A stretch of DNA of 64,000 nucleotides, from the NCBI GenBank assembly GCA_963823665.1, contig CAWGMQ010000010.1, positions 352,001 to 416,000 of the forward strand, read 5' to 3'. The stretch is from an uncultured Planctomycetota bacterium (lineage in GTDB: Bacteria > Planctomycetota > Planctomycetia > Isosphaerales > Isosphaeraceae). The notes beneath the pieces were generated by a model. That model worked only from the letters and a program-made list of their open reading frames with translations, was not told the origin of the DNA and made no database searches. A program made the position numbers and the translations under genes. Shown one piece after another: positions 8,462 to 63,558 of the stretch. Position 1 is the stretch's first letter. The number at the start of each line of letters is the position of its first letter.

Positions 8462-8826
8462 GGGGGCGAACCAGGATCGACCGGATGTCTGACGCGACTG
8501 GTGGCGTGCCGAGGTTGGTCAGCGGGCCTCGTAAAAAGCAGACCAAAACTTTAAGTGCCAACAGCAATGTTGCACTCCGTCTCGCTGCCTAAAAAACAGC
8601 AACGGCCTCGCGCCGCGTCTTCGCCCGAGAGACGCGGCCGGGGACGCTAATTCGGGATCGCTCGAGCCTAACCGCCGGTTGCGGCTCGGGTTAAATTCAT
8701 GACTGGCTACGCCGAATAGAACCCTGCCGATCGGGGTCTCAAGGCCGACAATCAAACGATCGGATACGCACGTAGAGGCCGTCGTTGATGCTTCTCGGGA
8801 CGCGGGTGCAATTCCCGCCGCCTCCA
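8462..8826 (+). ncRNA. ssrA: tmRNA (transfer-messenger RNA)
   Basis: 5' GGGGGCG...GGATCGAC; 3' T-arm and acceptor GACGCGGGTGCAATTCCCGCCGCCTCCA; internal tag ORF 8557-8592 = ANSNVALRLAA* preceded by TTAAGT. Confidence 0.96.
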
Positions 8827-8828
8827 CT
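8812..8828 (+). repeat. attL core (17-bp direct repeat, 3' end of ssrA)
   Basis: TTCCCGCCGCCTCCACT, identical to 63542-63558. Confidence 0.92.
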
Positions 8829-8918: not shown

Positions 8919-8963
8919 GTGTCAGATAACGTGTCAGATAAAGGGCTTGAAGGTGTCAGATAA
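8919..8963 (+). repeat. Three GTGTCAGATAA repeats (putative integrase arm-type sites, left)
   Basis: Copies at 8919, 8931 and 8953; same motif twice near attR. Confidence 0.75.
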
Positions 8964-9016
8964 GAGCCGGTAACATGGTCCCGTTTGGTGGACAGAGACC
9001 CAGATGGACCAAAATC

Positions 9017-10714
9017 ATGGCGACACGCAAGCGTGATCTCCGGCCGGATGCCAAAGGGCGTTATCGCCCGTACATCGGGTGGTATCAAGGTATCAACGAC
9101 GACGAAGAAAGGAGGCAGCCTCGGTTCAACCTCGGCACCGATCTGAAAGAAGCCGAGCGACGGCTCACGAGGATCAGGGAGCTTTACGAGGATAACTGCC
9201 GAGCGGTCAATCGGGACGGGTGGTCGACACAGGCGCTTGGATTCGCAAAAGAGATCGCTCGGGGTGACCGGCGTATTGTGTACCCGACATTCTCGGATGT
9301 GATCGACCAGGACTACCCGCTGCTCGAATTCGCCCAGATGCATCACAACATCCGGGACATGTACCCCTCTGTCGAGTTCGTCGCAGATCCGCAACTCTAC
9401 AGCGAGTCGCTTGAACTCAATAAGAAAAATGTCTCCGAGCGTCTGAGATTACTAGAAGGCGAGCTTCGGCAAGAGGGTTTCCTTCCGCCGAACGCTGAAC
9501 TTCCACACGAAATTATCCCCGGCACGCTACACGAAGCCCTCAGCGCCTACATGCAGGATATTCAGAGGCATAACGTTGCTCCGGGAACCAGCGAAACGAC
9601 AAGCTATGGTCTGCGAAGGCTGGAACGGATCGAGACGTTCAGAGAACACCATCCTGACATCGACCTGCATTCACTAAACTACGACGAGTGCAAAGCGATG
9701 GTTGACTACTGGCGTAGCCGTCCTCCTCGGAAAGACGGCAAGCCGTCGAGCCATGCCAACTCCCGGCATAATGTCGGAGAGTTGATGCGGTTCTTTCGCT
9801 GGCTCGACTCGTCTTCGGCGTTTGGCTGGCAGATGCCAAGGACGCTGGAACGAGTGGAACGCAAGGTTCCGAGAACTGATGGCGAGCGGCGGCTCTCGGC
9901 GATCACGAAGGAAATTTATACTGTCCATGAACTTGCAGAAATAAACCGCCACGCCACGCCCGTTGAACGGCTATTGCTCTATCTGGGACTGAATTGTGCG
10001 ATGGGTGCTGCGGAACTTGGGCGACTGGTCCAGTGCGACTTTTTCCTTCGCCAACCCCATGAGCTTGCTGACCGTCTGCACTTTCAATCGACACCCGAAG
10101 ACTCGTTCGCCCGATTCCTACGTCCCAAGACGCAGGTTTTCGGTGAGTGGCTCCTTTGGGCCGAGACCGTGCAGATGGTCGAATGGGGTCTGAACGAATC
10201 CAGACGCCTCAAGTCCGACGTACTCTTCGTGTCTGAACGTGGACAACCCTGGTATCGGGAACGAACTCAGAATCCGCACTCGAAGTTCACAAACGTTTGG
10301 GACAGATTGATTCGTCGAGTGCAAAAGTCGGACTCTGGGTTCCGACGCCTGCCGGTAGGGACATTGCGGGATACGCTTCCTGATCTGCTTCGCCACCGAT
10401 GTACCGACGAGATTGCGTCATTGTCGCTGGCGCACGGCTCCCCGTTCCACGGGGACAGCCTCCTGGAATGCTATGCGGGCAGGCCGTTCGGGCGATTGCA
10501 CACGGCCTTGAGGGAGATTCGTGCCTACTTCGACCCAGTCTTTGCTGCCGCTCCTGCTGATTCGACCGAGGAGGGAAAGCACTATCTGCCGATCGCTGTT
10601 CACGAGAAGGTCCGAGCGTTGATCGCCGAGGGCAAGACCGCACCCCAGATTGCCAGGGAATGCGGTGTCTCAGCGATGACCGTGTATCGAGCGATGGGAC
10701 GTTACGACTACTGA
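9017..10714 (+). CDS. Atypical tyrosine recombinase/integrase with C-terminal HTH
   Basis: Adjacent to attL; LGLNCAMGAAEL, RPKT, GTLRDT, LAHG, LECY resemble degenerate box I/II; C-terminal IARECGVSAMTVYR HTH. Confidence 0.72.
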   Translation: MATRKRDLRPDAKGRYRPYIGWYQGINDDEERRQPRFNLGTDLKEAERRLTRIRELYEDNCRAVNRDGWSTQALGFAKEIARGDRRIVYPTFSDVIDQDYPLLEFAQMHHNIRDMYPSVEFVADPQLYSESLELNKKNVSERLRLLEGELRQEGFLPPNAELPHEIIPGTLHEALSAYMQDIQRHNVAPGTSETTSYGLRRLERIETFREHHPDIDLHSLNYDECKAMVDYWRSRPPRKDGKPSSHANSRHNVGELMRFFRWLDSSSAFGWQMPRTLERVERKVPRTDGERRLSAITKEIYTVHELAEINRHATPVERLLLYLGLNCAMGAAELGRLVQCDFFLRQPHELADRLHFQSTPEDSFARFLRPKTQVFGEWLLWAETVQMVEWGLNESRRLKSDVLFVSERGQPWYRERTQNPHSKFTNVWDRLIRRVQKSDSGFRRLPVGTLRDTLPDLLRHRCTDEIASLSLAHGSPFHGDSLLECYAGRPFGRLHTALREIRAYFDPVFAAAPADSTEEGKHYLPIAVHEKVRALIAEGKTAPQIARECGVSAMTVYRAMGRYDY

Positions 10715-10798
10715 TTTTCTTTGAAACCGACACCGTCTAGAAGGGCGTTCGACCAATCAACGTGGTTGGTCCTGAAACCCTCTGATAACGGTGTCTCA

Positions 10799-15493: not shown

Positions 15494-16042
15494 ATGTCAG
15501 ACAGAGATCCAGATGACAACGAAGCCGGCCCAGTCAAAGCTCGGGGAGCATCGCTTCGTGCGTTGGATGTCGGGCTCACGATTAGCGAATCGACAGTCAG
15601 GGACTTGTTTGAGGAACTGCGTCGGCTGATCAGGGAAACGGTAAGAGAAGAGTTTTCACAACAAAACTCAAGGGTCCATGAATCAAAGAATCAGGACGCC
15701 TTGCGAGATCAGCCGAAGCCGCTCCCAGGAGGGATTGAACTGCCAACGACCGAGCAATTGAAGGCAAAGGACCTTCGGATGGCGCTGCTCCTCGGCAAGT
15801 TGCCAGAGGATTCTGGTTTGCTGATCGATATGAACACGACCGCCAAACTCTTGAGCATTACCAGGCGAACGCTCGATCGTATGGTCTCGGCGCACGAGAT
15901 TCCCTCGCCAATCTGCATCACCGGCAGAATGAAACGTTGGCGGCTAACTGAATTACTCGAATGGATTGAGGCGGGTTGCCCGCACCCGAACCATTGGTCG
16001 TATAGCTCGGACTCCGGGGTGCGTAGGAAGGTGAAGAAGTAA
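15494..16042 (+). CDS. AlpA/excisionase-like HTH protein
   Basis: TAKLLSITRRTLDRMV..IPSPI..RWRLTELLEWIEAGCP. Confidence 0.75.
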   Translation: MSDRDPDDNEAGPVKARGASLRALDVGLTISESTVRDLFEELRRLIRETVREEFSQQNSRVHESKNQDALRDQPKPLPGGIELPTTEQLKAKDLRMALLLGKLPEDSGLLIDMNTTAKLLSITRRTLDRMVSAHEIPSPICITGRMKRWRLTELLEWIEAGCPHPNHWSYSSDSGVRRKVKK

Positions 16043-16064
16043 AACGGAAGGAGAGGGTTGATTC

Positions 16065-16367
16065 GTGGGATCTCGCACGTACCGTCACATTCTAAGACCC
16101 TCGGTAGACTGCCTTCGGCAGCAAGGCAAATTCTTGATCGGCACCAAAGGCTTAGCCGAGTTCCTCGGCGTCGAACGGAAGATCATCCAGCAACTCATTT
16201 ACTGCGACCGAATCCCCCTTCCAGTGAGTCTTGGACTTGCGGAATGTCATCGTTGGAGCGTGATCGAGCTACTGGAATGGTTAGAGGCGGGTTGCCCCCG
16301 TCGAACCAAATGGATCGAGGCACGGGGCCAAAGCGGATGGTCTCCCTACTGGCGAACACGACCTTGA
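16065..16367 (+). CDS. Second AlpA/excisionase-like HTH protein
   Basis: LAEFLGV..IPLPVSLG..RWSVIELLEWLEAGCP; paralogous to the upstream gene. Confidence 0.7.
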   Translation: MGSRTYRHILRPSVDCLRQQGKFLIGTKGLAEFLGVERKIIQQLIYCDRIPLPVSLGLAECHRWSVIELLEWLEAGCPRRTKWIEARGQSGWSPYWRTRP

Positions 16368-16738
16368 TGACATGGAAGAGTTCCTGCCACCAGACTGCGT
16401 TTTTTTCGGCGGCGGATTTTCCGGACCTCGACTTTCTGGTGATTCTTGTAGCCCCCTGCGGAAAGCTCGGAAGTTTGAAGTAACAAATAAGGAAACCACC
16501 TCGTAACTGTTCCACCCGCCCCCCATCGGTATCCTTTTTTTCACAAATAAACCTGGAATTGTTGCTTCAAAAACTACGGTACAGACCCGCCCTCGTGGTG
16601 CCCTCTCAACTCTCACACATATCTCCTTGGTGTCAATTGGTAGCCTGATTTCCCCGCTCCTTGCTGTCGTCTAGGTGCAGGTGATCCTGCCGCCCGGTCA
16701 ACCTCAAGAATCGACTGAATAATGTTCAGCCGATTGCG

Positions 16739-17344
16739 TTACTCGGCGCTGTGCGTATGGCTCAGTACCCGGTAGATCGTTGGCCGAGAGAGTCCGGTAA
16801 TGCGGGCGATTTTGGCGATCGGCGTCCTCGCCGCTTTCATCTCTTGGATCGCACTGACTTGCTCATCGGTAACCCGCCATCGCCAACCCTTCTCGCTCCC
16901 GCCCCAAGTTTTGCCTTTCCGCCTGGCAACCTCTTGCCCGGCGTGAATCCGCTCTCCCCTGACCTCCGTCTCATACTCAGCGACCGATGCAAGAATTCGG
17001 GCGTGAAGCCGCCCGGCCGGTGATGAAAGAGTGAACCCGTCCTTGAGAGAGACGAGATCGACTTTCCTTTCCTGGAGTTCGTCAAACAACTGGCAAAGCC
17101 CTTGGGTCGTTCTCCCCAAACGATCCAGCCGCCAGACCACGATGCGGCTAAGTCGGCCGGCTCGCAATTCCGCCAGGAGCCGATCCATACCCGGTCTGTT
17201 CATCGTGCGCCCGGTGAACGTGTCTCGGAACCACTCAACGGGACCATCATGAGCTTCCACCCACCGTTCCAGGTCGGGCAACTGGCTGGCGTGGGTCTGA
17301 TCTCGATGGCTGACCCGGACGTAGTTGGCGGTGATCTTGGACAT
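16739..17344 (-). CDS. Serine recombinase (resolvase/invertase) with C-terminal HTH
   Basis: YVRVS catalytic Ser, RPGM, VWRLDRLGR, IARITGLSRPTIYR. Confidence 0.93.
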   Translation of the reverse strand: MSKITANYVRVSHRDQTHASQLPDLERWVEAHDGPVEWFRDTFTGRTMNRPGMDRLLAELRAGRLSRIVVWRLDRLGRTTQGLCQLFDELQERKVDLVSLKDGFTLSSPAGRLHARILASVAEYETEVRGERIHAGQEVARRKGKTWGGSEKGWRWRVTDEQVSAIQEMKAARTPIAKIARITGLSRPTIYRVLSHTHSAE

Positions 17345-17523
17345 CTATGTGAGACCCGAATTGTAAACTGTCGATTACAAGCGACACGATGCGCCGACTC
17401 TGACTATGAGATCCCGTTTTTTCCAGCGTCTGGACGAGCCGTTTTGGAGTATAGTGAGACGTTACACTTTCAGCTTGTCTGAATTGATCGGGCAGGCATC
17501 GCTTCCTGCCCTTGTCGTTGGTG

Positions 17524-17745
17524 TCATTCTGCCGGCGTACCGCTCCAGGTGATGTGACAGTTGTTGATGAACCGGCAGATCCAAGGGCCACCCTTGCCCT
17601 TTTGTAGTGCTTGGAACACCACGTCTCCATCGTGGTAAGCCTTGGCTGTTCCACCAGACTTGTCGTGTTCCACATAGCAGCCTTTGCTTACTGCATCACG
17701 CAGGATCGATTCGACTGCGTTGGTCGTCAAAAGTGCGACTGGCAT
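17524..17745 (-). CDS. Small hypothetical protein
   Basis: ORF starting MPVALL, 50 nt from the leader motif; TGA stop lies in the next motif. Confidence 0.6.
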   Translation of the reverse strand: MPVALLTTNAVESILRDAVSKGCYVEHDKSGGTAKAYHDGDVVFQALQKGKGGPWICRFINNCHITWSGTPAE

Positions 17746-17798
17746 AGGTCTTTCTTCTGGTAAGAGGGGCGTCGTTCCCAACGCCCCCTTCACCGGTG

Positions 17799-18050
17799 TC
17801 ACTTTTTATGCGGCTCGAAGCCGTAGTAGAACCGAGGACTGTGTTGGAAGAAGAGACTGCCCTTTTGGTTGTCGGACTTCCTTGTCACCACCACGACTGG
17901 TGCCATGAATCCGATGACGTCGAAGTCATCGGACAACTTGGACGTGTTCCACACTTGCCCGTGCTTGGCTTCCAAGTACTCCCTAGAGCCGGGTTCGGCA
18001 TTGATCTCGGCAACCATTTCCTTGCGGATCGACTCGGTTGAATCGGTCAT
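17799..18050 (-). CDS. Small hypothetical mobile-element protein
   Basis: MTDSTES start with AAGGA RBS; FDVIGFMAPVVVVTRKSD..GSLFFQHSPRFY. Confidence 0.7.
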   Translation of the reverse strand: MTDSTESIRKEMVAEINAEPGSREYLEAKHGQVWNTSKLSDDFDVIGFMAPVVVVTRKSDNQKGSLFFQHSPRFYYGFEPHKK

Positions 18051-18135
18051 ACGTATTCCTTTCGGGTTGAAGGGCGTTGATCTCACATCGCTCTCGACGG
18101 TGTCAGTTTGAAACGGGACGGAACGGATCGCCGGT

Positions 18136-18438
18136 TCAATATTCCTCGGGCCTCAAAGTCGTCGTGCAATAACGGAGACCGACCTCGTTGACCGCCTCGG
18201 TGATGACCCAGAGGCGCTCCCCCTTTCGGGTCACATACGCCGACAGGATTCGGCTTCCATTGATCAACGCCGCATCGTTGGCCTGGCGATCCTCTTCGTC
18301 GAGGTCGCCCCAATCGCCGGTGACGTGCCTGGCGAGGAACTCGCCCGCCGTTTGACCGGCATTCTGAAGGGCTTCAAGGGCACCAGGCGTGGCGACGATC
18401 CGCCCGATGCTGAATTTCTTGGTCTCATTGGGACTCAC
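18136..18438 (-). CDS. Small hypothetical protein of a type common on plasmids/ICEs
   Basis: GRIVATPGA..RHVTGDWGD..RILSAY..LWVITEA..TTLRPEEY. Confidence 0.75.
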   Translation of the reverse strand: MSPNETKKFSIGRIVATPGALEALQNAGQTAGEFLARHVTGDWGDLDEEDRQANDAALINGSRILSAYVTRKGERLWVITEAVNEVGLRYCTTTLRPEEY

Positions 18439-18529
18439 TTTGTCTCTCCTGAGTTGGACTTGTCGTTGTTTACGGTTTGAAAGGCGGTGTCGGGTGGGAT
18501 GCTGCTACCACCGCCTACCCGTGACTTGT

Positions 18530-18964
18530 TAGCAGTCGGCGTATTCGCTCTCGTTTGGTTCACCGTGCAAGGATCGGCCTCATCCTCGGCGTCGATCTGT
18601 GACCAATATTCAGCCAGGGTGAGCGCTTCATGGCGGGCTTGGTCTTCGGTCGCAATCCGTCAGTAGTTCACCACGGAAGAGCATGCCGTCGTCGCCCAGG
18701 GCGTAGCCGATCACGAACCGACCATGAGTCAGCCTGAACATCAGGGCGATGGAGCCGTCGTGAAACTGCCGAATGATCTTCGCTGCGACAGGCGAGCATC
18801 GTGCTGCCGTCCCAGCGGGTCAGGCTGATGAACCCATGACGGTGGCGGGTGTAACCCGTTACATTGCGACCATTTATCGATGAGCCGAAGGCGGCGAAGA
18901 CATGACCGTTATGGGTTACGATCCCGATCTCAAGTTGCCCACGCCGTTCGCACTTTGTCTGCAT
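18530..18964 (-). CDS. Hypothetical protein, probably frameshifted; 3' end approximate
   Basis: Start with GGAGG RBS (ORF 18668-18964); coding-like sequence appears to continue in another frame. Confidence 0.4.
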
Positions 18965-19012
18965 GGTGATCCTCCCGTTGAGGTGTTGTTGGTTACGGGA
19001 GGATCGGCGGTG

Positions 19013-19949
19013 TCAATTGCTGCGTTGCTTGGCGAGCAGGCGGAAGAACGAAGCCCGGCTCTTGCCGGTGACACGGCACCAAAATGCCTGTTGATCACTT
19101 ACAGAACTTGGGAAATGTTCGATGGCTTGCTCAAGAGTGCGAAGTTCTTGAACCTTGGCGTCGATTCGGCGTGATGTGTCTTCCTTGTGGACCAGGCTCT
19201 TTAGTTGCGTGAGTACCAAGTGTCGCCAGTCGAGAACCCTCTGATCGGGCGTAGAGAACTTTCTTGAAGGACGGTTCCAGCAACCGCATCGAAAGCGCCC
19301 GGTCGTCGCCGTTGCGTTCGATAAAATCGACCACCTCCAGACAATCGCCTGGACTCAAAGATTCAAAGCCCGCCAATGCAATTCGTCGCATCAACTCCAG
19401 AACCTCTTCCCGGCTCGCTTCCAGCGAGAAGATATCGACTCGGGATAACACGGCTTTGAAGGCGTCGTTGCGCTTCGGGACGATATTGGCACAAAATATG
19501 AGCCTGCTCTCGAAGACAAATGAAGCAGGCAAGTCATCCAACTGGCTTGACGAGTAGGTCAAGATGCGGGGAGTACCCCACAATGCCGACCGTAACAGTC
19601 CGAGGTGCGCCATCGAACTGAAGATGCTGTCAACGTCGTCAAAAAAAATCACTTTGCCCTGACGGTTATGGTAGAGGCATGCGTATAAGCTTAGAGGGGT
19701 TATGTGACTGTTCACAAGAATCGGTAATACGCCTTCGTCGGCAAGCGTGCGAACAACAGTCCGTGATTTTCCAAGGCCCCCCGTTGAGCCATACACGAAC
19801 AGCCCCACGCTCATGCCACGTGCCAACAACCGAACGTGGTGCGCCAAGAGGTCCTGGCGTTGCTCAAGGGCGGTTAGCGGTCCCTCGTCTGTGACTAAGT
19901 TGGCGGTATCGTCTTGGATTTGCGTGATCAGGTTCAAAGTGGTCTGCAT
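19013..19949 (-). CDS. P-loop ATPase with C-terminal HTH-like tail; frameshift near 19235
   Basis: GSTGGLGKS Walker A, IFFDDVD Walker B; continues in ORF 19013-19219 (GKSRASFFRLL); paralog at 55636-56655. Confidence 0.7.
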
Positions 19950-20003
19950 GGCGATGGTCCGAGTTAGATTGAAAGGGTGTTCCTCTCAGCCCTTTCGTCG
20001 GTG

Positions 20004-20183
20004 TCAGGCGGCGTGCTGGACTCGCCGGATGATCAACGGGCGACGAACAGTGGTGGGCAATTCCTTTGTCAATTCCCGCCTCTCCCGAACGTGTGAGGGG
20101 ACAGGAACGGAAACGGCGATGGCAGCTTGACGGCGGACAACCAAGGCTTCAGCGGGCGATCCGGGGCGAATCTTGATCAGCAT
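20004..20183 (-). CDS. 59-aa hypothetical protein (below the ORF-track cutoff)
   Basis: MLIKIRPGSP...VQHAA*; ATG 42 nt from the motif at 20225; TGA inside the motif at 20000. Confidence 0.5.
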   Translation of the reverse strand: MLIKIRPGSPAEALVVRRQAAIAVSVPVPSHVRERRELTKELPTTVRRPLIIRRVQHAA

Positions 20184-20279
20184 CTCTCTGACTCCAGGGG
20201 TGATTTCCTCACACCCCTTTCGTCGGTGTCGATCGGAGGATTCTGGGGGGCGTTCGTTTCGCCCCCCGTGTCTCCGTTG

Positions 20280-21172
20280 TCACCCAGGCGTTTCACCGAA
20301 AGACTTATCCCAGTACTTGGCCATCTGGTCGTCCGACTTCTTACCCGCCAAGTAATCCAGCACATACGAGGCAAGTTTGTGTCCCGGATCGGCAGGACCG
20401 GTCTTACCTTCCAGGAACGCCCTCAATTGCTTGAGGTTCCTCGTAACGGGTCCACCGTGACCGGTTGCCTCATGGTCCTCCTGACGTTTTTCTTTGATCT
20501 TGGCGGCCGTGACTTTTCCGCCACTGGACGCAACTTCGTCGAATGTCTTGACTTGTTTGTCGGTCGGCACTTTGGTCAATTCCAAAGCAGCCGATACGGG
20601 GGTTTTCCCTTTCGCCACACTTTCTTGGATATGCGTGGGCAACATCACGAGGTTGAGCAGGTTCGAGAGCCACTTCTCAGACCGCTTGAGCCGTCCCGAG
20701 ACTTGCTTGAGGGTTAAACCATAGTCCTCGGTTAGTGACCGAACTGCATGGGCCAACTGAATCGGTTTGGGGTCTTCCCGTTGTATGTTCTCACTAATGT
20801 TGACGAGTGCTGCCTCGGCATCGGAGAGGCGGGAAATCGAGTATTTAATCTTGAAATCGGGACATTCGCCACTCTCGATCAGCCAGAGGGCTGCCCGCAT
20901 ACGTCGAAACCCGCCGATGACTTCCAATCGACGATCAGGAAGGGGACGGACAAGGATCGGATTCAACTGCCCGCTGGTGCCGTCTTCGGTGTCGTTTGAC
21001 CCTTTCTTTGGGAGCATATCCCTGCCAAGTTCGACGAGTGCATCGTCGATCGGCGGTTCTTCGCCACCACGGCTCAGATTCTTCTTCCAGTCGATGACGA
21101 GCGCCTTGGATCGACAAGGAAAATGTCAGAACGTGTAACCTTGTGGTCGCCGGTGTCTGCTGCAAAAGCCAT
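20280..21172 (-). CDS. ParB/Srx-family protein with HTH; frameshift near 21105
   Basis: LNPILVRP..EVIGGFRRMRAA, ENIQRED, YGLTLKQVSGRLKRSEKWLS; start MAFAAD has a GGAG RBS. Confidence 0.82.
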
Positions 21173-21449
21173 AAATCAGTCTCCTGGGTTGTGGTTGTTT
21201 GTCTCGTTTGTCGTCGGTGTCAGTTTTCTAGTGGATTCGTCGTCGCCTTGGTTCGTTGCTGTGTTGAGCCTGCGGTGTCGAGATCGCCGCTCCCTGGATC
21301 GGAATCGGCGATGACTTTCTGGTCGATTGGCGTTGATTTGCATGGATGACGCTCCGTCCAACATTCGTAATGTGTGTGAATAGTCCGAGGCGGTTTGATG
21401 GCTGTCCCGTTCGCACTTCCTTCGACGGTGTCAGTTGATCTGCCTGGGG

Positions 21450-21773
21450 CTAGGGACGGCGAATTTCACCCGCCGAGGTGTAGCCGTAAATCTTGCGGAG
21501 GAACTCGATGGCCTTTGGATCGAGATGAGCTTGGTCGTTGGCGGTGCCGATGATGGTGCCGTCTCGCAGAAATGTGAGATGCCAACCGGCGTGTTCGTTT
21601 ACCTGGACGGCATCCAGGCTGGGGTCGGCAGCGAAGGCTTCCCTGGCAACCTGGCTCATCAGTTCATTGCCCCACTCTGACGGTCCCAAGTAGATCCAGA
21701 GCTTCTTCGCATAGACGTTTCCATTTCGCTCGATGAGCGCCATTACGGGCTCTCCGGTGTTGGTCGAGATCAT
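21450..21773 (-). CDS. Hypothetical protein
   Basis: ORF in the co-oriented cluster, preceded by the leader motif. Confidence 0.55.
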   Translation of the reverse strand: MISTNTGEPVMALIERNGNVYAKKLWIYLGPSEWGNELMSQVAREAFAADPSLDAVQVNEHAGWHLTFLRDGTIIGTANDQAHLDPKAIEFLRKIYGYTSAGEIRRP

Positions 21774-21830
21774 CAGATTCGTCCAATTTTTGTATTTGTG
21801 GTCGTTGGCTCCGTACGGTGATCGTCGGTG

Positions 21831-22232
21831 TCAGTCCGTGTCCCAATCTGAGAGTTGTCTTGGGTCGATGCCTTCGGCGGGCATCCCCTCGCCGTGGTAT
21901 TTCACCGGGAAAGGCACTTCCGACCGTTCCGCACCGTGGATCAGCAAGTGATCCAGGTCGATAACTCGCCCTGACCCGTCAAAGTGGCGGTCGTTCTCGG
22001 GATAGTCAGAGAGGTCGCTATCGGGGACGTGAAGTTGATGACCGTAAGTTGCGTCATCGCTGAGTTCGTCGATGGCATCGGACATGGAGTCGGCTTCGAC
22101 GATGAGGAATAGCGGCGTGTAAGAACCGCCGAGTTCAAGGAGCCACGTCTTGCCGAACCAGCCATCGGGGTTGAGTACGGGGATGTCGGTGAGGTCATGT
22201 CCGTGGAACTTGCATGAGGCGGCGATCTTCAT
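21831..22232 (-). CDS. Acidic hypothetical protein
   Basis: Start MKIAAS with GGAG RBS; TGA stop inside the leader motif. Confidence 0.65.
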   Translation of the reverse strand: MKIAASCKFHGHDLTDIPVLNPDGWFGKTWLLELGGSYTPLFLIVEADSMSDAIDELSDDATYGHQLHVPDSDLSDYPENDRHFDGSGRVIDLDHLLIHGAERSEVPFPVKYHGEGMPAEGIDPRQLSDWDTD

Positions 22233-22284
22233 GGGTTTGCTCCGTCTGGGTGAGTGTTCTTCACACCCACCCCTGCGGTGTCGG

Positions 22285-22950
22285 TTAGCCTCCCTCTTCA
22301 ACCTGCACATATCCCAGGGCATCAAACGCTGCCCTCAGATCGTCTTCTGACGGATACCCGCCCTGATCGTCACGGTTCTCCACACTGCTGGAGCGGTTCT
22401 CGCTCAGCCAGGAATAGACTTCACACTCCCAGCCATCAGGAAGTTCATACTCGTGCTTGACCCGCCATGCGGCATCATTGATGTTTTCGAGGGTCGCTTC
22501 GTATTCACGCCGGGAGTAATCCTCTTCGCTGAGAATCGGGTATCCATCCATTTGTTCGCATAGTTCGTGATAGGTCTTGAACGCTTCCGTAACCTCACCG
22601 TCCCGGTAGACCCTGATGGAAAAACCATCGACGTGACCGACCGCCCAATGACTGTGAGATTCGATCACCACGTCCGGATCGTCTTCGTCCGTGAACGGTT
22701 CCATCGCATCGGCGATGGCATCGGCGTTGGATTGGTCCAGGAGACCGCTGTCACGATTGTGCGTGTAGATGATCGCCCAGTTGTCAGGGTCGTTGAGATC
22801 CCGCTCTCGGTCCCAAACGAAACACTGAAAATGCTGCCAGTTGCCAGCCGCTTCCTTGGCGGCATCTTCGACGGTTAGTTCACCAAGTGCGGTCATCTTG
22901 ATCTCCGTTGGAAGGGGTTTTTTCACGCCCCTTTCGGTGGTGTCGGTCAT
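22285..22950 (-). CDS. Acidic hypothetical mobile-element protein (start may be MTALGEL near 22896)
   Basis: HWAVGHVD, YPILSEEDYS motifs; very acidic composition. Confidence 0.7.
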   Translation of the reverse strand: MTDTTERGVKKPLPTEIKMTALGELTVEDAAKEAAGNWQHFQCFVWDRERDLNDPDNWAIIYTHNRDSGLLDQSNADAIADAMEPFTDEDDPDVVIESHSHWAVGHVDGFSIRVYRDGEVTEAFKTYHELCEQMDGYPILSEEDYSRREYEATLENINDAAWRVKHEYELPDGWECEVYSWLSENRSSSVENRDDQGGYPSEDDLRAAFDALGYVQVEEGG

Positions 22951-22992
22951 GCGTGATCAGAGACAACGAAGTCGCAGGCGAGATGCGCTCTG

Positions 22993-23223
22993 CTATTCGA
23001 TTCGCACAAGCCCGTAGTGCACATTCCGGACTCGCTTGTGGTAGTGCCGGGGCACGCTCTTCCAGGACCCGTCTGGGAACTCGATCTTGATTCGTCCATT
23101 GGCGAATACCTCTGTGACAGTCACTCGCTGTTTCCTGGCCTGCGGGGAAGCGGGAAAGTAGAACGCCGAGTCGCCGAGTTCAGGTAATGCAGCGACTTCC
23201 AGGGTCATTTCACCCACGCTCAT
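22993..23223 (-). CDS. Small hypothetical protein
   Basis: GGAGG RBS; leader motif 47 nt upstream. Confidence 0.6.
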   Translation of the reverse strand: MSVGEMTLEVAALPELGDSAFYFPASPQARKQRVTVTEVFANGRIKIEFPDGSWKSVPRHYHKRVRNVHYGLVRIE

Positions 23224-23507
23224 AACTACCTCCGTTTGAGGGGTAGTTTGCTTTCATGCCCCTCTCGTCGGTGTCGGTTGAGAAGAGACCGAACAGGGAG
23301 CACCGTCGTCGATCCGAGGCGGCTTCGAGCGTTCGCATGGGCAGCAGAATACCGCCCGCCGCTGGCCAGTCGGGAGCGATTCACGCTGCTTCTTGATCGC
23401 AGAAGCCGAGCCGCAACTTGATCGACTTGGGTGTCCCTGTCAGGTTGCCCACGATCGGGACGATTCGCACGGCGGTGTCAGTTGTCGACACTCTGTTCTC
23501 GCAGGGG

Positions 23508-24449
23508 TCATGCCTGGACAAGCTCTTCCGTTTGCTCGGGCACGTCCTCGGGCTTACGTGAGAAATCGAGGATGTAGGAAGCGGCTTTACTGGCTTGTGC
23601 GGAAGCCAAAAATATAAAACGAGGGTCGCCCTTCATGCCTCTGAGCCAAGAGGCGAGGTATGCCGTGTGGTTCGACAAGTCCTCGGAAGACGGGACGTTC
23701 AACTCACGGCAGACATAAACCCCTCCCAGTTCGGCGATCAACTCTCCGAAGCCGTACGAGTTTTCCTTGATCTTCCGGCTCCAATCGAGCCGTGACGGGT
23801 GTTCCGTGGCATGAACACATTCATGGAAAGCAGTGGCGTAGTACTCATTCAGCGACTCGAACGTCGCTTTGGACGGCATCTGGATGCAATCTCGTTTTGA
23901 GTCGTAGAACGCTCGTCCCCCGCCATAACGAAGGCTGATGCCCATGCCACACGTCGCAGCTTCGAGAGCTTCCTCTGCGGGCAGGTAATCAATTGTTAAG
24001 GGTCCGGTGCCTTCGGCCTGCTCGGCACAGAGATGGGCGAGTCCTTCCGTCTGGTCTGCGTTAAAAATCGTATACATTCTGAGTACGAAGAACCGGTCTT
24101 CGGTTTCATCACCGTTCTCGTCTCGGTCGGTCTTCGTGACCGGCGTCCAGAAGCAGATCTGCGTTCCCCAACGCCCAGGTGGCACATGACTTGGACGAGG
24201 CAGCACTCTGCCTTTCAAGTTCTTGATCTGTTGAAAGGTTCCCCACCAGTGGGAGGTAAACCCATGCGTCTGCGAGGCGAGGTCCAGCAAGATAGGATTC
24301 AAGCCCCTGTATGCCCGCTTGCTGATAATGTTGCGTTGAACGGAGTTATTGGATCGCCAAGGTCTTCGCCACGGAGGCAGCGACCCGCTCTCAAGTGCGG
24401 CGATGATCGTGTTGGTGATCTGCTCCCGAATCTGATTCTGGTTCGCCAT
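23508..24449 (-). CDS. ardC: ArdC-family ssDNA-binding antirestriction protein (DUF1738 + metallopeptidase-like domain)
   Basis: PWRRPW, YRGLN, WGTFQQ, YTIFNADQ, HECVHAT (HExxH), ELIAELG, YLASWL. Confidence 0.9.
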   Translation of the reverse strand: MANQNQIREQITNTIIAALESGSLPPWRRPWRSNNSVQRNIISKRAYRGLNPILLDLASQTHGFTSHWWGTFQQIKNLKGRVLPRPSHVPPGRWGTQICFWTPVTKTDRDENGDETEDRFFVLRMYTIFNADQTEGLAHLCAEQAEGTGPLTIDYLPAEEALEAATCGMGISLRYGGGRAFYDSKRDCIQMPSKATFESLNEYYATAFHECVHATEHPSRLDWSRKIKENSYGFGELIAELGGVYVCRELNVPSSEDLSNHTAYLASWLRGMKGDPRFIFLASAQASKAASYILDFSRKPEDVPEQTEELVQA

Positions 24450-24839
24450 GACTGCTCACCTCCGGGTTGGACGTGGTAGGTAACTCACGTCCCCTTCGTC
24501 GGTGTCAGTTCAAAAAAGAGGATGATTCCCTGAGATCGGCGAGAAGTAAGAAAGGGCTTGTCTCACAATGTGTGTGAGACGCTTTCGCTGCGATGGGATC
24601 GCCGGATAGAAACTCTGGCAAGAGAATGAGTTGAGTGGCGATGGTCTAGGTCGCACGTCAATTCAGGTACGCCAACCGGTTCCCTAGATATAGAGAAGGC
24701 GACCGCCGCAGCACGTACGCAAACCGACACCGACGTCATAGACTAGGGGGGAGCGTCGAAGAATCATTCATCCTCAGACGATTTGTAACCGCACCATGTC
24801 CGAGGTGAAAAACGCTAACACCGAGGCAAGCGGCGATCC

Positions 24840-25040
24840 GTGATCATGAGGCATCTGGACAAGTTCTTCCGGACACGGCAGATTGAGAAAGGCTTTTCCC
24901 CTCGTCAACTGGTCGCACTGGCTGGTTCCACAAACTTGAACAAAGGCACCAACCTCATCCAGAAGTTCGAGTCCGGTGGCACGATCGCACCCGAACCGTT
25001 CACCAAGCTGTGCTCAATCCTGGAGGACGTCCGTCGTTGA
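24840..25040 (+). CDS. Small HTH-like protein or remnant
   Basis: RQIEKGFSPRQLVALAG..IQKFESGG resembles an XRE HTH; divergent from the leading-region cluster. Confidence 0.4.
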   Translation: MIMRHLDKFFRTRQIEKGFSPRQLVALAGSTNLNKGTNLIQKFESGGTIAPEPFTKLCSILEDVRR

Positions 25041-25127
25041 CAGAGGCGGCAAGTCGCTGATTCAACGGGTTAGACGATCAGCGTGAATAAGAAGCCAGCC
25101 CTGTCCGCTGGTCTGGCGCAAGTTGCG

Positions 25128-25895
25128 TCACCCGATTTGCTCAATCTGAGAGTCATGCACGCCGAATAATGTCTCATCCTGAAGAGCGGCTCGGACGATT
25201 ATTGCTCGTTCTTCGACGTCCTCATCGGGAATAAGTTGCATCGCCTGAGTGGCCGTCACATACGCCGGCGATGGGTTTAGCCAAACTCGATGCTGCCAAA
25301 TCTCAAGGCCACCAGCCGGATGAACTGCCGCCACGAGCGTGCCTAACTCTTGTCTGTAGTCATGCGGATCAGCAGCGATACCAAAGAGTTGATAGACCAT
25401 GACCTTTCTTTGGACCGGCATTGAGCAGACGGATGCCGTTCGATGGAGCATTTGGTAAACGACTTGATTGACTAATCCTCGGTCAACTTGCCCGGTTGTA
25501 CCTTCTATCAATTGAATCCAATGCTGAAGAACCTGCGGCTTCCGACTGCGGGCGTTCGCTCTAGCCAGCCAAACGCCTACTGTCTCGTACATCGGCTCGG
25601 TGGACTTGCCCTCTACTCCAATGGCCGTTTGGGTCGAACGGTACATAATATCGGTGTAGGAGGGAGTTTCTCCCTGAAATGAATCGACTTGGAACTCGCA
25701 ATGGACGATAAGATCGGTTTCGAGTGGAACACTTAAGTCGTTGAACAGGTTATCGACTCTAGCCTGCTCGCTCCAGTAGAAAAGGAGTGGGACCGTCGAA
25801 CGAGTGATCTTTGCAAACTCTGCGGACGGGTAACGACCGAGTATTCCAGCGAAATCGCAGACGTTCGGTCTACCGTAGTGATATCGCATGATCAT
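25128..25895 (-). CDS. Putative PD-(D/E)XK nuclease (resembles DUF6946)
   Basis: SYTDIM..IGVEGK..EP, YQMLHR. Confidence 0.55.
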   Translation of the reverse strand: MIMRYHYGRPNVCDFAGILGRYPSAEFAKITRSTVPLLFYWSEQARVDNLFNDLSVPLETDLIVHCEFQVDSFQGETPSYTDIMYRSTQTAIGVEGKSTEPMYETVGVWLARANARSRKPQVLQHWIQLIEGTTGQVDRGLVNQVVYQMLHRTASVCSMPVQRKVMVYQLFGIAADPHDYRQELGTLVAAVHPAGGLEIWQHRVWLNPSPAYVTATQAMQLIPDEDVEERAIIVRAALQDETLFGVHDSQIEQIG

Positions 25896-27108: not shown

Positions 27109-30100
27109 TAGATCTGAATCAACGAATTCTGAGAGGTCACCGAATAGTTGCTCGTACTTCTCGATCCGGCATTTCGTGCTTGTACCAACTGTCCGAGCGC
27201 CTCGCCCAGCTTGACCTTCGCTAGCTCGAAGCGGCGGGTCAGCACATCGGGATAGGTTTCACGAAGGCGGATGTAGTTCGGGTCGTCGGATCTCGGCTGC
27301 ATGTCCGAGACATCGACGAGCTTCAGGGCACCGGCGAAGGGGATTTTGTGGCGTTTGAGGCGACGGATCGCCTGGTCGGAAAAGTCAAGCGGCATGACCT
27401 CACCATCATCAAACAACCCACGGTTCGCAGTTTGGGCAAGCTCGACGTAAGCCGCTTGAAGGAGTAGCTGCCGGATGGTTTCCTTGAGCGAGGCGACGTG
27501 CGCCTTCTGGTTCTGCTCGGCAACCAGGGCGTCTTGGGCACCGTACCGCTCGATCGCTTCGAGGAAGCGTCCCCGTATCTGAGCCAACTGGTCGGCTGAG
27601 AGCTTCGGCGGGGAGGCGTCATCCAGTTGCTTTCGCAGTGAGGTGAGGGAAAGGATGGGCTCGGTTTCACCATCCTTCATTGGTCCGTAATACCCGACCA
27701 AGGGAACTGGCTCTCCCACCTGACACCGTGCCAGCAACCCGTCCGATTCCCTCGCAGTCGGTGGCTCTACAGCTTGCAAGATCTCGTCCAAGAGTTCGGA
27801 GCCGAATGACAGAAGGGTCAGCGTATTGGGGTGATCGTCGAATAACTCGGGATTGAACGTGACCTCTTGGTCCTCTCCGTTCCAGTCCAGCAGGTGCGCC
27901 CTGGGATCGATGGATGCGGACGGAACCGTGAGCCCAGGGCCTTCGATTGAATGAGGGCCCGTTCCATTTCCGTCAGCGTCAGGGGCACGGGCAGATCCGC
28001 AGGGGCTTCCACGGCGTCACCGGAAATTCTGTCGAGCCCAATGCCGGTGGTTTCCCCCTGCCCGACCATGCGGTTGATTTCTTCCACCTGGTCCCGAATC
28101 AGAGCCTCCCGCTGTTCGTCACCAGCCATGACCGCCGACTCGATAGCACGGGCGACCCGACTGAGGATCGGCTGAAGTTCGCCCACGACGTTCTCGAACG
28201 AACCGATTCGGTCGTCGAGGCGCTGGTAGATCGTTGCTTCGACGGTCTGATCGTAAAAGTAGTTGCGGACCCAGACCCGTGAGTAAACCTGTCCGATGCG
28301 GTCGATACGTCCGATCCGCTGCTCGACCCTCATGGGGTTCCAGGGCATGTCGTAATTGATGAGAACGCCGCAAGTCTGGAGGTTGAGACCTTCGGATGCG
28401 GACTCGGTGCAGAGGAGGATCTTGACCTCCGTGTGCTCCCGGAAGGCGTTCTTGATGTTCTCCTTGCTAGTCCCCGACCAGGCTTTGCCATTCCACTGCT
28501 CGCCGCCCCGGCCGCTGTAGCAGGCGACCTGGGCACCGTAAACCTGACGGAGCTTGCCACGCAGGTAGTCCATTGTGTCGGTGTATTGAGTGAACACGAT
28601 CACCGAGTCCCGCCACTTCAAGAACTCGTTGAGCTGCTGGACAAGCCGCTGGAACTTGCTGTCGGTGCCGATAGTTCTCAGCCCGGTAAGAAAGTCCTCG
28701 ACGTACTGGATCTCGCCTTGGAAGAGCTTGCGGGTCTCCGAGGCCGCAAACGCAAAGGTCTCCGTCACGTCCGATTCGAGGTCGTCTTGGTCGGTGTCGT
28801 CGTCGTCGGTCAACGATGTGTCCATGCCTTTCAGGAACTCAAGCCGACGCTCTAGGCTCCGCTGGATGGCGTAAAAGCTACTCGTCAAGCGGCGGCGGTA
28901 GACTGTCATGATGAAGCCGAGTCCTTTCCGCTCGGCTTCATATTTCTGGTAATTATTGCGGATGTACTCTTCGATCTGGTCGTAGAGGGTCTTCTCCTCC
29001 GACCTCATTTCGATCCATTCGGACTTGGGGTCACGGTAGGGAACGCTTTCCTTGAGAAGCCCCTTCTCGTGATAGAGCCGCAGCAGACGCCGGGTGTTGC
29101 GGAAGACGAACCGCTGGAGCGGCGTGTGCGCCCGTGCTACCGCCACCAGGAGCTTGCGTCCGTTAGCGTCGAGCCCCCTGATGGTCGGCTCGGGGTTGGA
29201 CGACCACGGGAGGTTCTTGATTTGATCCCAGATGACCGGTCCCACCGACCGCTCGGCGTCTTCGCAGAAACGATCGTCCCACTGCCCGCCCGTGCCGAAA
29301 AAATCTCGCAACATGGCGAGCAAAAACACCCAATCCATGTCAGCGAAAGGAAGGCGGAACTGCTGGAAATAGCGGACGAAGTTCTCCTCCCCGGCACCCC
29401 AGCGACCGCCCATCCCCAGGAGCTTCAGGAGATCCCAGACCTCAATCGGGTCGATCTGCATCGGGGTCGCCGTCAGTAGTAGCAACCCCTTTGTGCGATC
29501 CTTCAGTCCCGGCTTGGCGTTTGTGCCCTGGAGCAGTTCGAGGAGGCGGTTGGGGCGGTACTGCTCCCGGTTCAGGAAGTCTTTGCGACGGGCGTGGTGC
29601 GCCTCATCGACGACGATCAAGTGCCAGGGTTGAGCCTCGCCCAACTGATCCTGGCGTTCACGCCGCTTCGCTAGGTGACTGGACGCCAGGAACACCGGAT
29701 GGGCGTCCCATGGGTTGGTTCCCGTGGGCACCTTTAGCGCCCTGCCGAATACGTCGTAAAATGCGCTACCGTCGTATCGGGGGATGTTCAGGACGAACTT
29801 CTCGTAGAGTTCCTCCTGCCACTGAACCAGGACGCTCTTCGGAACCAGGATGAGCGCTCGCTTGACCCTCCCCGAGAGAATCAACTGGCGGATCGCCAGA
29901 CCCGCTTCCACAGTCTTTCCCAGACCCACTTCGTCGCACAGCATGAACGAGTGGGGAAACCGTTCGATCACCGCATCGCTCACCTTGATCTGGTGGGGCC
30001 ACGGTTGGACCGTGCTTGTTGCCATTCCGAGACGATGGGCGTTCAGGAGGTGAGGCGCATCACGAAGGAACTGGAAGACGATCCGCTCCTTCTGCGTGGC

Positions 30101-30868: not shown

Positions 30869-30874
30869 CGCAAA

Positions 30875-48719: not shown

Positions 48720-48817
48720 ATAGGAACTGGCGTCTTTCCACGGCGATCTCTACTCATAAGAGTCATCGACTTCAGCGACTCTTGGGCAAACTGACGATCA
48801 ACAGGAAAGCTCGTCCG

Positions 48818-58615: not shown

Positions 58616-60238
58616 ATGTATATACGTAAAATGTCCGGGATTTCCCCGGAAAGGAGAGTCCTGACTTGGATCAGAAAGCGCATTCACCCCTATTGCTGGG
58701 GGAGAAGCAACCGCTTCAAAAAGGGGTTCAGCCAGACGAGTAGTCGTCAAATCCTGGAGTTCTTCGGCTGCCTACGCTATGAACTGCCAAAGCGGTTCCT
58801 TCCCAGCATTAGTAACAAGGACTTCATGACCCACTTCACTGGTCAGGAGATCCTTTACTTTCAATCGAATGGTCGCTGGCGTGTCCCAGAGACCCTTATC
58901 AAGATTGACATCGACTGCCACACAATGGGGTCATACCAGGGGGCGCTGGAATGCGTTGAGTGGTTGAGAAACAATTTGTTCCCAGGGTTGTTCTGGTGTC
59001 GATCGACGAACGGCCGGGGAGCGCACGCATACATTGTGATCAGGAAGGCGGGCTCCGGTGACGAGATGCTCGACAAGGCCATCACGAAGCTGGAGCGGTG
59101 GCTTCAGTACCAGCATTACCTTCACGGTTGGGACTTCGAGATCATCGAGGTAAAGGGTAGACCTCCGATCTTTCGCTGGGCTGACGAGAAATATGAGTTG
59201 AGGGACGTGAGGCTGGGAACGTTGGCTAAAGTTCCGGTGGACGGCCTACTTCGCCCAGAGGAATTGATGGCGACTACCTCTGTGAGCATTCCCTGGCTCA
59301 ATCGACTTGGGCTGGAAGTCCCGAAGGGTTGGAACAAGAGTGATATATACTGTTCTACTTATAGTTTGCCAATAAGCGATAGTGGCTTTGGTGACATCAA
59401 CCTTGAGGATCTCAGGCTGTGGCAACCTGAAACTGGGAGCCGTGTCTGGTGCCCGTGGATTGAAAGGATGGCCAAGACCGGGTTGGTTGAAAATGACTCA
59501 ATGAGCAAGGTTGTTTATGAACTTGCGAAGTGGTTGCTCTGGATTGAACTATTTGATAGTGACGATCGTCAGGAACTTGCGACCGAGTTGCTTCAATCCT
59601 ACGTTATTTACAAACACAATGGTCATGTGAGTCGGTTAACTAATGGGCATGAAGCAGAGGTGTTGTCACAGGTTCAGCGAATTGTTGCTTCTGCTGTGGT
59701 AATCAACCCGGATTCTAACGAATTGTTCGCCCGAATTCGTGAAGGCCGAGACAACGGGAAGTATTGGCGTCCGATCAAGATAGTTCCCTTGCTCTCAGGA
59801 ACCAGGGCGACTAATAGTGGTGACGATACACATATAATATGTACTACTTATAGTTTGCCAATAAGAGAAGACCTTCTACCCCACATCATCGAAGACAAAC
59901 TTCTCCGATATGCGACGTCGAAGCGAATGAGACGATCCCAAGGTGATTACCCATTTGTTCGCTTTTCTCGACGACTACTGAATCACCTATATGATCGGAA
60001 GGGCTCGGCACGGCTCAGCACAGAGAGTCTAACCACGCTGGTTACTAACGTTCATCAACAAAACGATTTCAAAAAAGCGCTTCGGGATCTCAATCTGCTG
60101 CGGGACTGGACCGGAACCTACCGAGCCAAGAGCGCCTCTTGCCTCTATCACCTGACCGATGAGGCACTGACTCTTATTAGGAAGCACCAGTCGGACGTCG
60201 GATCTGAACATTCTGATCCGGTTTCCCTGTGCGGCTAA
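58616..60238 (+). CDS. Putative replication initiator / AEP primase-polymerase-like protein
   Basis: IKIDID (DxD) and STNGRGAHAY (His) motifs; follows an HTH gene as in satellite/IME replication modules. Confidence 0.55.
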   Translation: MYIRKMSGISPERRVLTWIRKRIHPYCWGRSNRFKKGFSQTSSRQILEFFGCLRYELPKRFLPSISNKDFMTHFTGQEILYFQSNGRWRVPETLIKIDIDCHTMGSYQGALECVEWLRNNLFPGLFWCRSTNGRGAHAYIVIRKAGSGDEMLDKAITKLERWLQYQHYLHGWDFEIIEVKGRPPIFRWADEKYELRDVRLGTLAKVPVDGLLRPEELMATTSVSIPWLNRLGLEVPKGWNKSDIYCSTYSLPISDSGFGDINLEDLRLWQPETGSRVWCPWIERMAKTGLVENDSMSKVVYELAKWLLWIELFDSDDRQELATELLQSYVIYKHNGHVSRLTNGHEAEVLSQVQRIVASAVVINPDSNELFARIREGRDNGKYWRPIKIVPLLSGTRATNSGDDTHIICTTYSLPIREDLLPHIIEDKLLRYATSKRMRRSQGDYPFVRFSRRLLNHLYDRKGSARLSTESLTTLVTNVHQQNDFKKALRDLNLLRDWTGTYRAKSASCLYHLTDEALTLIRKHQSDVGSEHSDPVSLCG

Positions 60239-62386: not shown

Positions 62387-62484
62387 CGGAGTAGGTGTCC
62401 TTTCGTAACGTTTTTCGTCAGCCTCTCAGTTGAGCCGATGACCCCTCGGTCGGTGTCGGTTTGACCGGCAAAAAGCCGCTACTA

Positions 62485-63541: not shown

Positions 63542-63558
63542 TTCCCGCCGCCTCCACT
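63542..63558 (+). repeat. attR core (displaced 3' end of ssrA)
   Basis: TTCCCGCCGCCTCCACT, identical to 8812-8828. Confidence 0.92.

Follow-up and report, generated by a model that had tools for sequence, protein, structure and literature searches.

Repeated cis-elements ahead of ard establishment genes have been described as CUP (IncN, ArdK) and as EGeRS1 and EGeRS2 (pLS20/p576 family) (PMC8708921, PMC6289460). EGeRS are 420-750 bp long with 62-95% identity and precede 4-5 operons, EGeRS1 blocks read-through and clusters by plasmid, and EGeRS2 combines a strong sigma-A promoter with a repressor (PMC8708921, PMC6289460). Related designs include the single-stranded DNA (ssDNA) promoter Frpo, in which canonical -35/-10 elements are rebuilt in a stable stem-loop (PMC9849209, PMC11541004), and several phage systems taken up below. 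Here we describe a short asymmetric box that recurs ahead of almost every gene of a cluster containing ardC and parB, carried by a genomic island of an uncultured Planctomycetota bacterium of the family Isosphaeraceae. The DNA analysed is a stretch of 64,000 nucleotides (positions 352,001 to 416,000 of contig CAWGMQ010000010.1, assembly GCA_963823665.1, forward strand), referred to throughout as the window. We favour, as reasonably probable, the reading that the box is a promoter private to the element and repeated gene by gene. The box appears to be distinct from Frpo, CUP, EGeRS and attC and from the families of Rfam, and cannot be assigned to a described family; literature searches on planctomycetes, ardC and TGACACC promoters found no account of it, most subscription journals lying outside their coverage. 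It resembles CUP and EGeRS in purpose, as a repeated element ahead of ard genes. Unlike EGeRS, only 12 bp and an initiator are common to the sites, no long repeat was found, there is one copy per gene and the islands appear to be non-conjugative. No KorA/TrfB-type (CUP/ArdK) match occurred among the best 5 families of each open reading frame (ORF) of the window, a comparison in which ArdK itself was not searched.

Between positions 16600 and 24750 (8.15 kb) the minus strand carries 18 copies of YGACACC and the plus strand 1, compared with a mean of 2.2 and a maximum of 7 in 300 dinucleotide shuffles. The repeated motif is thereby confirmed as real, in agreement with a preliminary description of this DNA that had counted about 19 GGTGTC cores in 8 kb and expected 2-3 by chance. 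The strict bipartite form occurs 9 times in the same interval (0.01 expected) and is absent from the other 55.9 kb of the window. Numbered from the base before GAYACY, the profile reads Y1GACACC7 R8 C9 C10 G11 R12, followed by weak purines to position 18, by Y19 G20 T21 and by an A/C-rich stretch. Among copies only positions 1-12 and 19-23 are conserved, a span of 23 nt, and start codons lie mostly at motif offsets 47-60. The preliminary description had placed about a dozen boxes 42-54 nt ahead of a start codon, and all nine pairs that it named hold (42-52 nt from the core end); we found two further pairs (22945 to 22896 and 18492 to 18438). The additional copies it had reported at 62452 and, inverted, at 24724/24725 are both present; the copy within parB, at 20994, looks weak, as does that at 21280. 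It had also placed five TGA stops within TGACAC, and all five close open frames, of 91-167 codons. In the window alone such overlap is modestly above chance (5 of 11 T-starting boxes vs 39 of 135 other TGA triplets of the region); across 15 islands it was seen at 69 of 230 sites.

Of the order's 121 genomes, 34 contain ArdC relatives, the window's own genome (G000) among them; relatives also occur at 55 loci of the genome collection (~10 overlapping the order's set) and at 80 metagenome loci; the collection loci were obtained by an alignment-based scan, a single-protein scan having found nothing. Fourteen related islands of the Isosphaeraceae type carry 7-23 co-oriented copies of YGACACC each, downstream of ardC. 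Related ArdC islands across Planctomycetota share the layout, each with an asymmetric ~12-bp box of its own in the same places (AGACACCCGCTT, GGATACnnGCTA, TGATACTGACTA, TGACACCGACTW, GGACACCAACTA, TATACCCACTA and ACACCTGTTA), with ACCCTG and GTTGTAC as more distant classes. Loci of the GTTGTAC and ACCCTG classes (L109, L118, L121, L115, L103, L094; L060, L063-L065, L067) keep the gene-by-gene layout and differ in the spacing to the Shine-Dalgarno sequence (SD). Motif discovery gave noise for several loci (e.g. L073, L077, L082, L103, L115, L117), whose boxes were read from other comparisons or omitted. The variants follow the element: a single host family contains YGACACC..CGR, ACACCGCCCA and ACCCTG boxes, and in the ArdC tree box types mostly track clades, one host family comprising at least 2 clades with different boxes. 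L060 is an exception: its box is of the ACCCTG class, but its ArdC belongs to the GACACC clade. Plasmid ArdC matches were all <60% identical. A viral collection scanned for ArdC gave 3 distant loci, all without a box, and no box array was found in 188 viral loci having a single box match; the viral-collection contig L467, rich in GACACC, was discarded as the antisense of a repetitive coding region.

The preliminary description had proposed comparing island with host DNA, and outside the islands the motif is at background. The complete genome G145 contains 91 matches vs 85 in the control, 16 of the 91 being in its island. In G000, where the comparison comprised pattern searches and 23 inspected matches, the 17 matches outside the island and 8 more from an earlier pattern lie nearly all inside long reading frames, and none of the 23 inspected non-island matches is followed by an SD plus gene. 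This background frequency suggests that the determinant travels with the element and not with the host. Gene content of the clusters varies from box to box. At ~codon 147 of ardC the linker between its two domains holds a box copy in a number of loci (L049, L050, L052, L056, L057, L095, L112 and others), which has been lost in the window. Out of 63 loci, 45 have a linker copy that is closer to the island's own variant than to those of other islands, which is a weak effect. One cluster (L088:14270-19622) has an imuA-imuB-dnaE2-like mutagenesis cassette inserted on the opposite strand.

The preliminary description implied a pair of boxes in the manner of -35 and -10 elements. What it called a second box is probably not a -10 element and appears to coincide with the start site, or RNA 5′ end. 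A pyrimidine-purine step falls at positions 19/20 in 116 of the 131 SD-led sites of the 15 Isosphaeraceae-type islands. In 28 other loci, searched with hand-chosen patterns whose fixed positions went up to 12 or 13 only, 139 of 225 sites are SD-led; 116 of these have Y19 and 123 have R20. No SD among these 139 starts before position 19, the search allowing starts from position 9; 19 start at positions 19-23, with a pile-up of 17 at 21-23. In the Isosphaeraceae-type islands most SDs (123 of 131) begin at position 34 or beyond. The ~180-nt non-coding element that follows ardC provides a third marker, 17 of its 19 copies beginning at position 20, while positions 13-19 ahead of it vary freely; of the remaining two copies, one begins at 19 and the other at 20 after a degenerate box. 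Bacterial transcription starts prefer a pyrimidine at -1 and a purine at +1. From the step, the lower bound on the SD and the start of the ~180-nt element we infer that the RNA 5′ end lies at motif position 20. The box would then occupy -19 to -8, six free bases would separate it from the initiator, and nothing is conserved at -35.

Phage promoters lacking a -35 element are known from the gp55-dependent late promoters of T4. In the late promoters of phage AR9, a short motif read by an element-specific factor ends at -8 and is followed by six free bases and a pyrimidine-purine step at -1/+1 (PMC5449584), the same box end, spacing and lack of a -35 element as deduced here. By this analogy the box would work most like a phage promoter without a -35. 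It differs from the AR9 and T4 late promoters in being 12 bp long, GC-rich and placed before almost every gene of an integrated island, and no polymerase or cognate sigma factor is visible here. The least probable of the readings we weighed is an ordinary promoter of the extracytoplasmic function (ECF) type, in which YGACACC would be the -35, YGT the -10 and the start near position 32. The 123 late-starting SDs of the Isosphaeraceae-type islands leave room for this, and CGT resembles ECF -10 cores. However, the spacer is 4-5 nt shorter than that of ECF promoters, the 19 SDs of other islands starting at 19-23 would be cut off, the non-coding element begins at 20, no host regulon was seen in G000, and the second element would lie at the inferred RNA 5′ end and not upstream of the start.

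A fixed 5′ boundary at position 20 is predicted equally by the main rival, an unlikely one in our estimate, in which a sequence-specific endoribonuclease cuts a polycistronic precursor between 19 and 20, 7 nt past the box, destroying the hairpin present at many sites and freeing the ribosome site. Such processing would give the hairpin a direct job and would agree with the stops that abut the box and with the missing upstream terminator at most boxes. It requires upstream promoters, however, and between 16000 and 25200 we found 0 sigma70-like -35/-10 sites vs 3.2 in shuffles. The first and divergent boxes point away from each other, and a back-to-back divergent box of this kind was present in 22 of 39 islands vs 21 of 424 control windows. 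About half of the sites would be cut within a stem and the others in unpaired RNA, the pyrimidine-purine step is a start-site signature, and no nuclease family common to the clusters was found. In non-Isosphaeraceae islands a terminator-like hairpin with a T tail stands just ahead of the box at 17 of 145 sites vs 48 of 1450 random positions. A promoter is favoured over a cut because of the step, the divergent box, the absence of sigma70 sites, these terminators and the pyrimidine tail of the ~180-nt element.

Hairpin potential (z<-1.5) was found at 49% of 152 sites compared with 14% of coding controls, and z-scores over 9 sites of the window range from -5.3 to +2.5. The hairpins of the preliminary description are accordingly real at some sites, about half of the sites having none. 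Stems are of ~7-15 bp; the 5′ arm lies at about positions 6-23, mostly upstream of +1, and a hairpin that straddles +1 cannot form in RNA begun there. At 50 of 77 sites a site's own 5′ arm pairs better with its own leader than with orthologous leaders (-14.5 vs -12.4 kcal/mol; the islands are related and the sites not independent). This matching is distinct at ardC and at several further genes but lacking at parB and at two small-gene families, which together with the sites lacking a hairpin tells against a universal structured RNA leader, one of the options raised in the preliminary description. Where it exists, the pairing goes with the gene downstream, regardless of what precedes the box. 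At 18996..19015 the hairpin reaches a z of -5.3 and is kept in 5 islands. We suggest that hairpins form only in read-through RNA or in ssDNA, where they would hide the SD or start codon, as at 19015. PeSLs, the promoter-terminator cassettes of T4-like phages, are early promoters read by the host enzyme. They too combine promoter and stem-loop between small variable genes and are linked to modular shuffling (PMC4122927); the composite layout is alike, but no sigma70 consensus is found here and the sequence is element-specific.

The hairpins and the ArdC and ParB context also bring to mind the Frpo/ssi type of ssDNA promoter, likewise associated with establishment genes, in which a hairpin would rebuild a duplex promoter for the host RNA polymerase on incoming ssDNA. 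We regard this option of the preliminary description as very improbable. The canonical -35/-10 are missing from 16000-25200, the stems are short, many sites have no hairpin, and the complementary arm is downstream, within the transcribed leader. Relaxase and type IV secretion system (T4SS) Pfam families had no match among 75 ORFs of the window or among 136 chosen from nine related islands, oriT not having been searched, so the label 'leading region' given in the preliminary description is not established. The case in which a private factor would read the box on ssDNA is counted under the promoter reading and not under Frpo. No more probable is a cassette-joining site at the second box, also raised in the preliminary description, comparable to attC and used by a Xer-type recombinase or a resolvase. 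Gene content does change from box to box, stops overlap the box and most extended islands encode a Xer-like recombinase or resolvase. The hairpin, however, extends across 19/20 and its match is to the gene downstream, an argument against a crossover there. Three cluster recombinases score 62-75 bits where the integron integrase model TIGR02249 has a cut-off of 265 bits, the window has a serine resolvase, and both recombinase types are found with one and the same box class. In attC sites a long hairpin is flanked by an inverse core and a core site, unlike the short conserved span and the hairpin across the would-be crossover seen here, and the SD bound and initiator would go unexplained.

Within the window the ~180-nt element folds into a small 5′ hairpin, a long bulged rod and a pyrimidine/T-rich tail (z -3.7), and its 19 copies range in z from -1.5 to -7.8. 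It stands after ardC in the window and in L072, L074, L075, L078, L081-L083, L085, L090, L093, L097, L101, L104-L107, L119 and L120. Both sides have changed in 33 of 49 pairs, above all 500 shuffles and all slid controls, counts that lean toward the rod because its structure was derived from single-sequence folds of those same sequences; RNAalifold on the plain alignment recovered the 5′ hairpin only. Rfam gave 3 matches in the window, at E 1.8-4.6, far under gathering and none on this element, and no match at the gathering threshold in 6 related loci; neither the element nor the box thus matches an Rfam family, and the preliminary description's suggestion of a gene-by-gene expression signal is supported, the signal being island-specific and not host-wide. 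The size and rod shape suggest a possible likeness to 6S RNA, and the pyrimidine tail is like the end of a self-contained unit.

Two kinds of phage repeat are of similar size. The operators/stoperators of Cluster A mycobacteriophages, which the array resembles in layout, are asymmetric sites of ~13 bp, intergenic and oriented with transcription, in >20 copies and phage-specific variants (PMC9283540). Co-oriented, intergenic, asymmetric and element-specific sites of ~12-13 bp are equally what is found here, and repressors control ardC operons elsewhere (PMC8708921, PMC6289460). The box could on these grounds be an operator or stoperator on which an element repressor silences the resident cluster, being absent after entry to a new cell (zygotic induction); the better fit of the ardC-linker copy to its own box would agree, weakly. 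We think this improbable. It does not explain the fixed Y19-R20 step and the lower bound on the SD that follow the box, an underlying sigma70 promoter and a cognate repressor were not found here, and no helix-turn-helix (HTH) family was found that is common to all clusters or constantly behind the divergent box. The SAS/ESAS of Cluster K mycobacteriophages are conserved 13-bp repeats before many genes, of function given as unknown, SAS overlapping the ribosome site (PMC3203893). The box is similarly short and repeated before many genes, but differs from SAS in standing clear of the inferred RNA, with at least 7 nt between it and the SD (SD at position 19 or later).

Candidate factors were sought among the proteins of the clusters. 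A family of ~155 aa that appears to consist of sigma region 2 only is encoded behind a box in nine clusters. Its fold search placed ECF sigma region 2 at the top (Z 7.1, which is middling; rmsd 5.6; 82 aligned), Foldseek gave no match at E<=0.001, and distant relatives have Sigma70_r2/r4 matches; the model suggests a fold like sigma region 2 with region 4 lacking. The family (L076:19685-20158 and relatives) derives from a ~200-aa Planctomycete sigma-like family, and in one island the short and long forms stand side by side (L076:18734-19309 and 19685-20158). It occurs in 19 of 121 genomes, 12 of the 34 with ArdC and 7 of the 87 without. Only ArdC, by ascertainment, and a merged 203-aa/133-aa family occur in 43 of 45 clusters. 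The 203-aa acidic family (39 related loci) was rejected as the factor, having no clear fold (best Z 5.0) and no usable Atlas match and being absent from L107 and L112; the divergent box is followed by a gene that varies between islands and was therefore set aside. Two mutually exclusive AAA+ types are encoded, a PHROG-1250-type AAA ATPase in 20 loci and a RuvB-like ATPase without RuvA in 18. Regions of AAA ATPase in the window are 19013-19949 and 55636-56766, and RuvB-like genes are found in L082, L086, L088 and others.

Several observations weigh against a promoter with its own reader. The cognate factor was not found among the candidates examined, though one of very divergent sequence could have escaped: the sigma-region-2-only protein is absent from G000 in a six-frame HMM scan, with none in the window, the wider sigma-like family is unmatched in 15 of 35 island-bearing genomes, complete G145 included, and the copy in an ACCCTG-class island keeps the predicted recognition helix of GACACC-class islands, so that it finds no support as the factor, being missing from G000 and similar across two box classes. 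The two AAA+ types do not track box class, and the arm-type repeats of the integrase do not track the box across islands. One SD among the 131 Isosphaeraceae sites lies at position 15, and a looser first pass, in which purine runs within the spacer were allowed to count, put 22 of 152 starts between offsets 17 and 26. The strong conservation of G20-T21 exceeds the usual need of a start site, and the position test covered the classes other than GTTGTAC and ACCCTG, whose spacing differs. Isosphaeraceae-type islands show no terminator excess (3 of 124 vs 30 of 1240), a terminator is missing ahead of most boxes in general, and own pairing was not better than cross pairing at 27 of 77 sites. A helper-supplied factor is possible.

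In the unit we propose, an upstream stop would be followed by the 12-bp asymmetric box (YGACACC RC CGR here; -19 to -8), six free bases, the pyrimidine (-1)/purine (+1) step, an A/C-rich unstructured leader, the SD and the gene, a -35 element being absent. One element-specific trans-acting factor would recognise the box, either a sigma-like subunit without region 4, an activator beside RNA polymerase or the product of a helper element, and would turn on the whole ardC cluster, the small RNA and a few replication and integration genes together, each gene giving its own short transcript. In read-through RNA the hairpin would mask the ribosome site or start codon or slow elongation, insulating each gene until its own promoter fires. 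Genes could be gained, lost and reordered from box to box because each would carry its own promoter. Activation would be timed to entry or excision. A further-reaching proposal, which we hold only tentatively, is of a private transcription system in which a factor of undescribed type reads the -19/-8 box without a -35, possibly on ssDNA. Box and factor would co-diverge between elements, giving expression channels orthogonal to one another throughout the phylum, and the circuit would include a 180-nt RNA of its own. As part of the same tentative proposal the factor might be a subunit of sigma region 2 without region 4, the island's primase-polymerase-like protein, which would either serve as an RNA polymerase or recruit one, or an enzyme supplied by a helper.

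The island is ~55 kb long and bounded by a 17-bp repeat of the 3′ end of tmRNA (Table 1). Its cargo comprises a tyrosine integrase, a ClpX-like ATPase, a resolvase, ardC, parB, defence genes, IS elements, a primase-polymerase-like ORF and a methylase. Integrase relatives are present in 5 of 11 other extended islands, adjoining tmRNA or tRNA-Ala (in G093 a tmRNA-like 3′ end only). Arm-type repeats (TTATCTGACAC) lie at both ends of the island (8919-8960 and 63461-63483 of the window) and have a 7-bp core in common with the box; the box core is found in the arm-type repeats of G000 and G093, partly in those of G145 and not in those of G134, G141 and G153. The ClpX homologue (10721-11950), behind a box right after the integrase, scores above the NCBIfam cut-off, and related islands have one too. 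The 540-aa protein (58616-60238) had no library match; its archaeo-eukaryotic primase (AEP)-like motifs were assigned by eye, and we take it to be a likely replication protein. Relatives occur in islands L057, L079 and L113, where the gene is close to the cluster end. Defence genes at 27818-41228 and 46956-52434 include a DUF499/DUF1156/SNF2-PLD set, broken by an ISL3 element, an Mrr-like nuclease and McrBC. The ardC genes of related islands are preceded by the same layout as the head box. Compared with homologues, parB (21172-20280), the ATPase (19949-19013) and the XRE-like HTH gene (24846-25040) are split or truncated, by decay or assembly indels. The non-coding stretch after the terminal box (16380-16635, minus strand) is conserved, with matches in 5 other loci, and could be an origin or another RNA.

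Table 1 Boxes, genes and island boundaries in the window, in window coordinates
Feature	Position	Strand	Context
Head box	24488..24507	-	Ahead of ardC; positions 1-12 = 24507-24496; inferred +1 24488
Divergent box	24725..24744	+	Back to back with head box; ahead of short XRE-like HTH ORF
ardC (ArdcN + zincin MPTase)	23508..24449	-	First gene of the cluster
Box	23461..23480	-	Ahead of non-coding element; inferred +1 23461
Conserved ~180-nt structured non-coding element	23283..23461	-	
Box	23257..23276	-	Ahead of 76-aa ORF 23223-22993
Box	22926..22945	-	Ahead of 203-aa acidic ORF 22896-22285
Box with hairpin	22264..22283	-	Ahead of 133-aa ORF 22232-21831
Box	21814..21833	-	TGA is stop of ORF 22232-21831; ahead of ORF ending 21450
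Box	21414..21433	-	No gene directly after
Box	21203..21222	-	Ahead of parB-like gene (start 21172; frame split from 21017-20280)
Box	20212..20231	-	Ahead of 59-aa ORF 20183-20004
Box	19987..20006	-	TGA is stop of upstream ORF; ahead of AAA-type ATPase 19949-19131/19013 (frame split)
Box with hairpin	18996..19015	-	Hairpin over SD of ORF 18964; 5′ arm mostly upstream of inferred +1
Box without hairpin	18473..18492	-	Ahead of 100-aa ORF 18438-18136
Box without hairpin	18086..18105	-	Ahead of 83-aa ORF 18050-17799
Box with hairpin	17782..17801	-	TGA is a stop; ahead of 73-aa ORF 17745-17524
Box with hairpin	17507..17526	-	TGA is a stop; upstream of resolvase 17344-16739
Terminal box	16616..16635	-	Followed by conserved non-coding DNA
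Box	62439..62458	-	Ahead of DUF3102-like ORF 62386-61694 and DNA methylase 61637-60816
Box	10728..10747	+	Directly after integrase stop, ahead of ClpX-like gene; good copy, absent from the preliminary description
Left attachment repeat	8812..8828	+	3′ end of tmRNA (8462-8827)
Right attachment repeat	63542..63558	+	17-bp copy of tmRNA end
Divergent tyrosine integrase	8975..10714	+	
540-aa protein with primase-polymerase (AEP)-like motifs	58616..60238	+	

The motif is real and its conservation phylum-wide, and it most likely marks an unusual promoter specific to the islands. Few solutions are known for switching on anti-restriction and establishment genes after an element arrives, namely Frpo, repressor titration as in CUP and EGeRS2, and EGeRS1; the box array looks like another, in an unstudied family of tmRNA- and tRNA-integrating islands across Planctomycetota. 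It makes the precise prediction of a start at position 20 and comes with dozens of natural box variants. The box is also a marker that delimits small unknown genes, which probably encode anti-defence factors, and through it a new structured RNA came to light. Should there be a private factor, it would represent a new mode of promoter recognition and a source of short orthogonal promoters.

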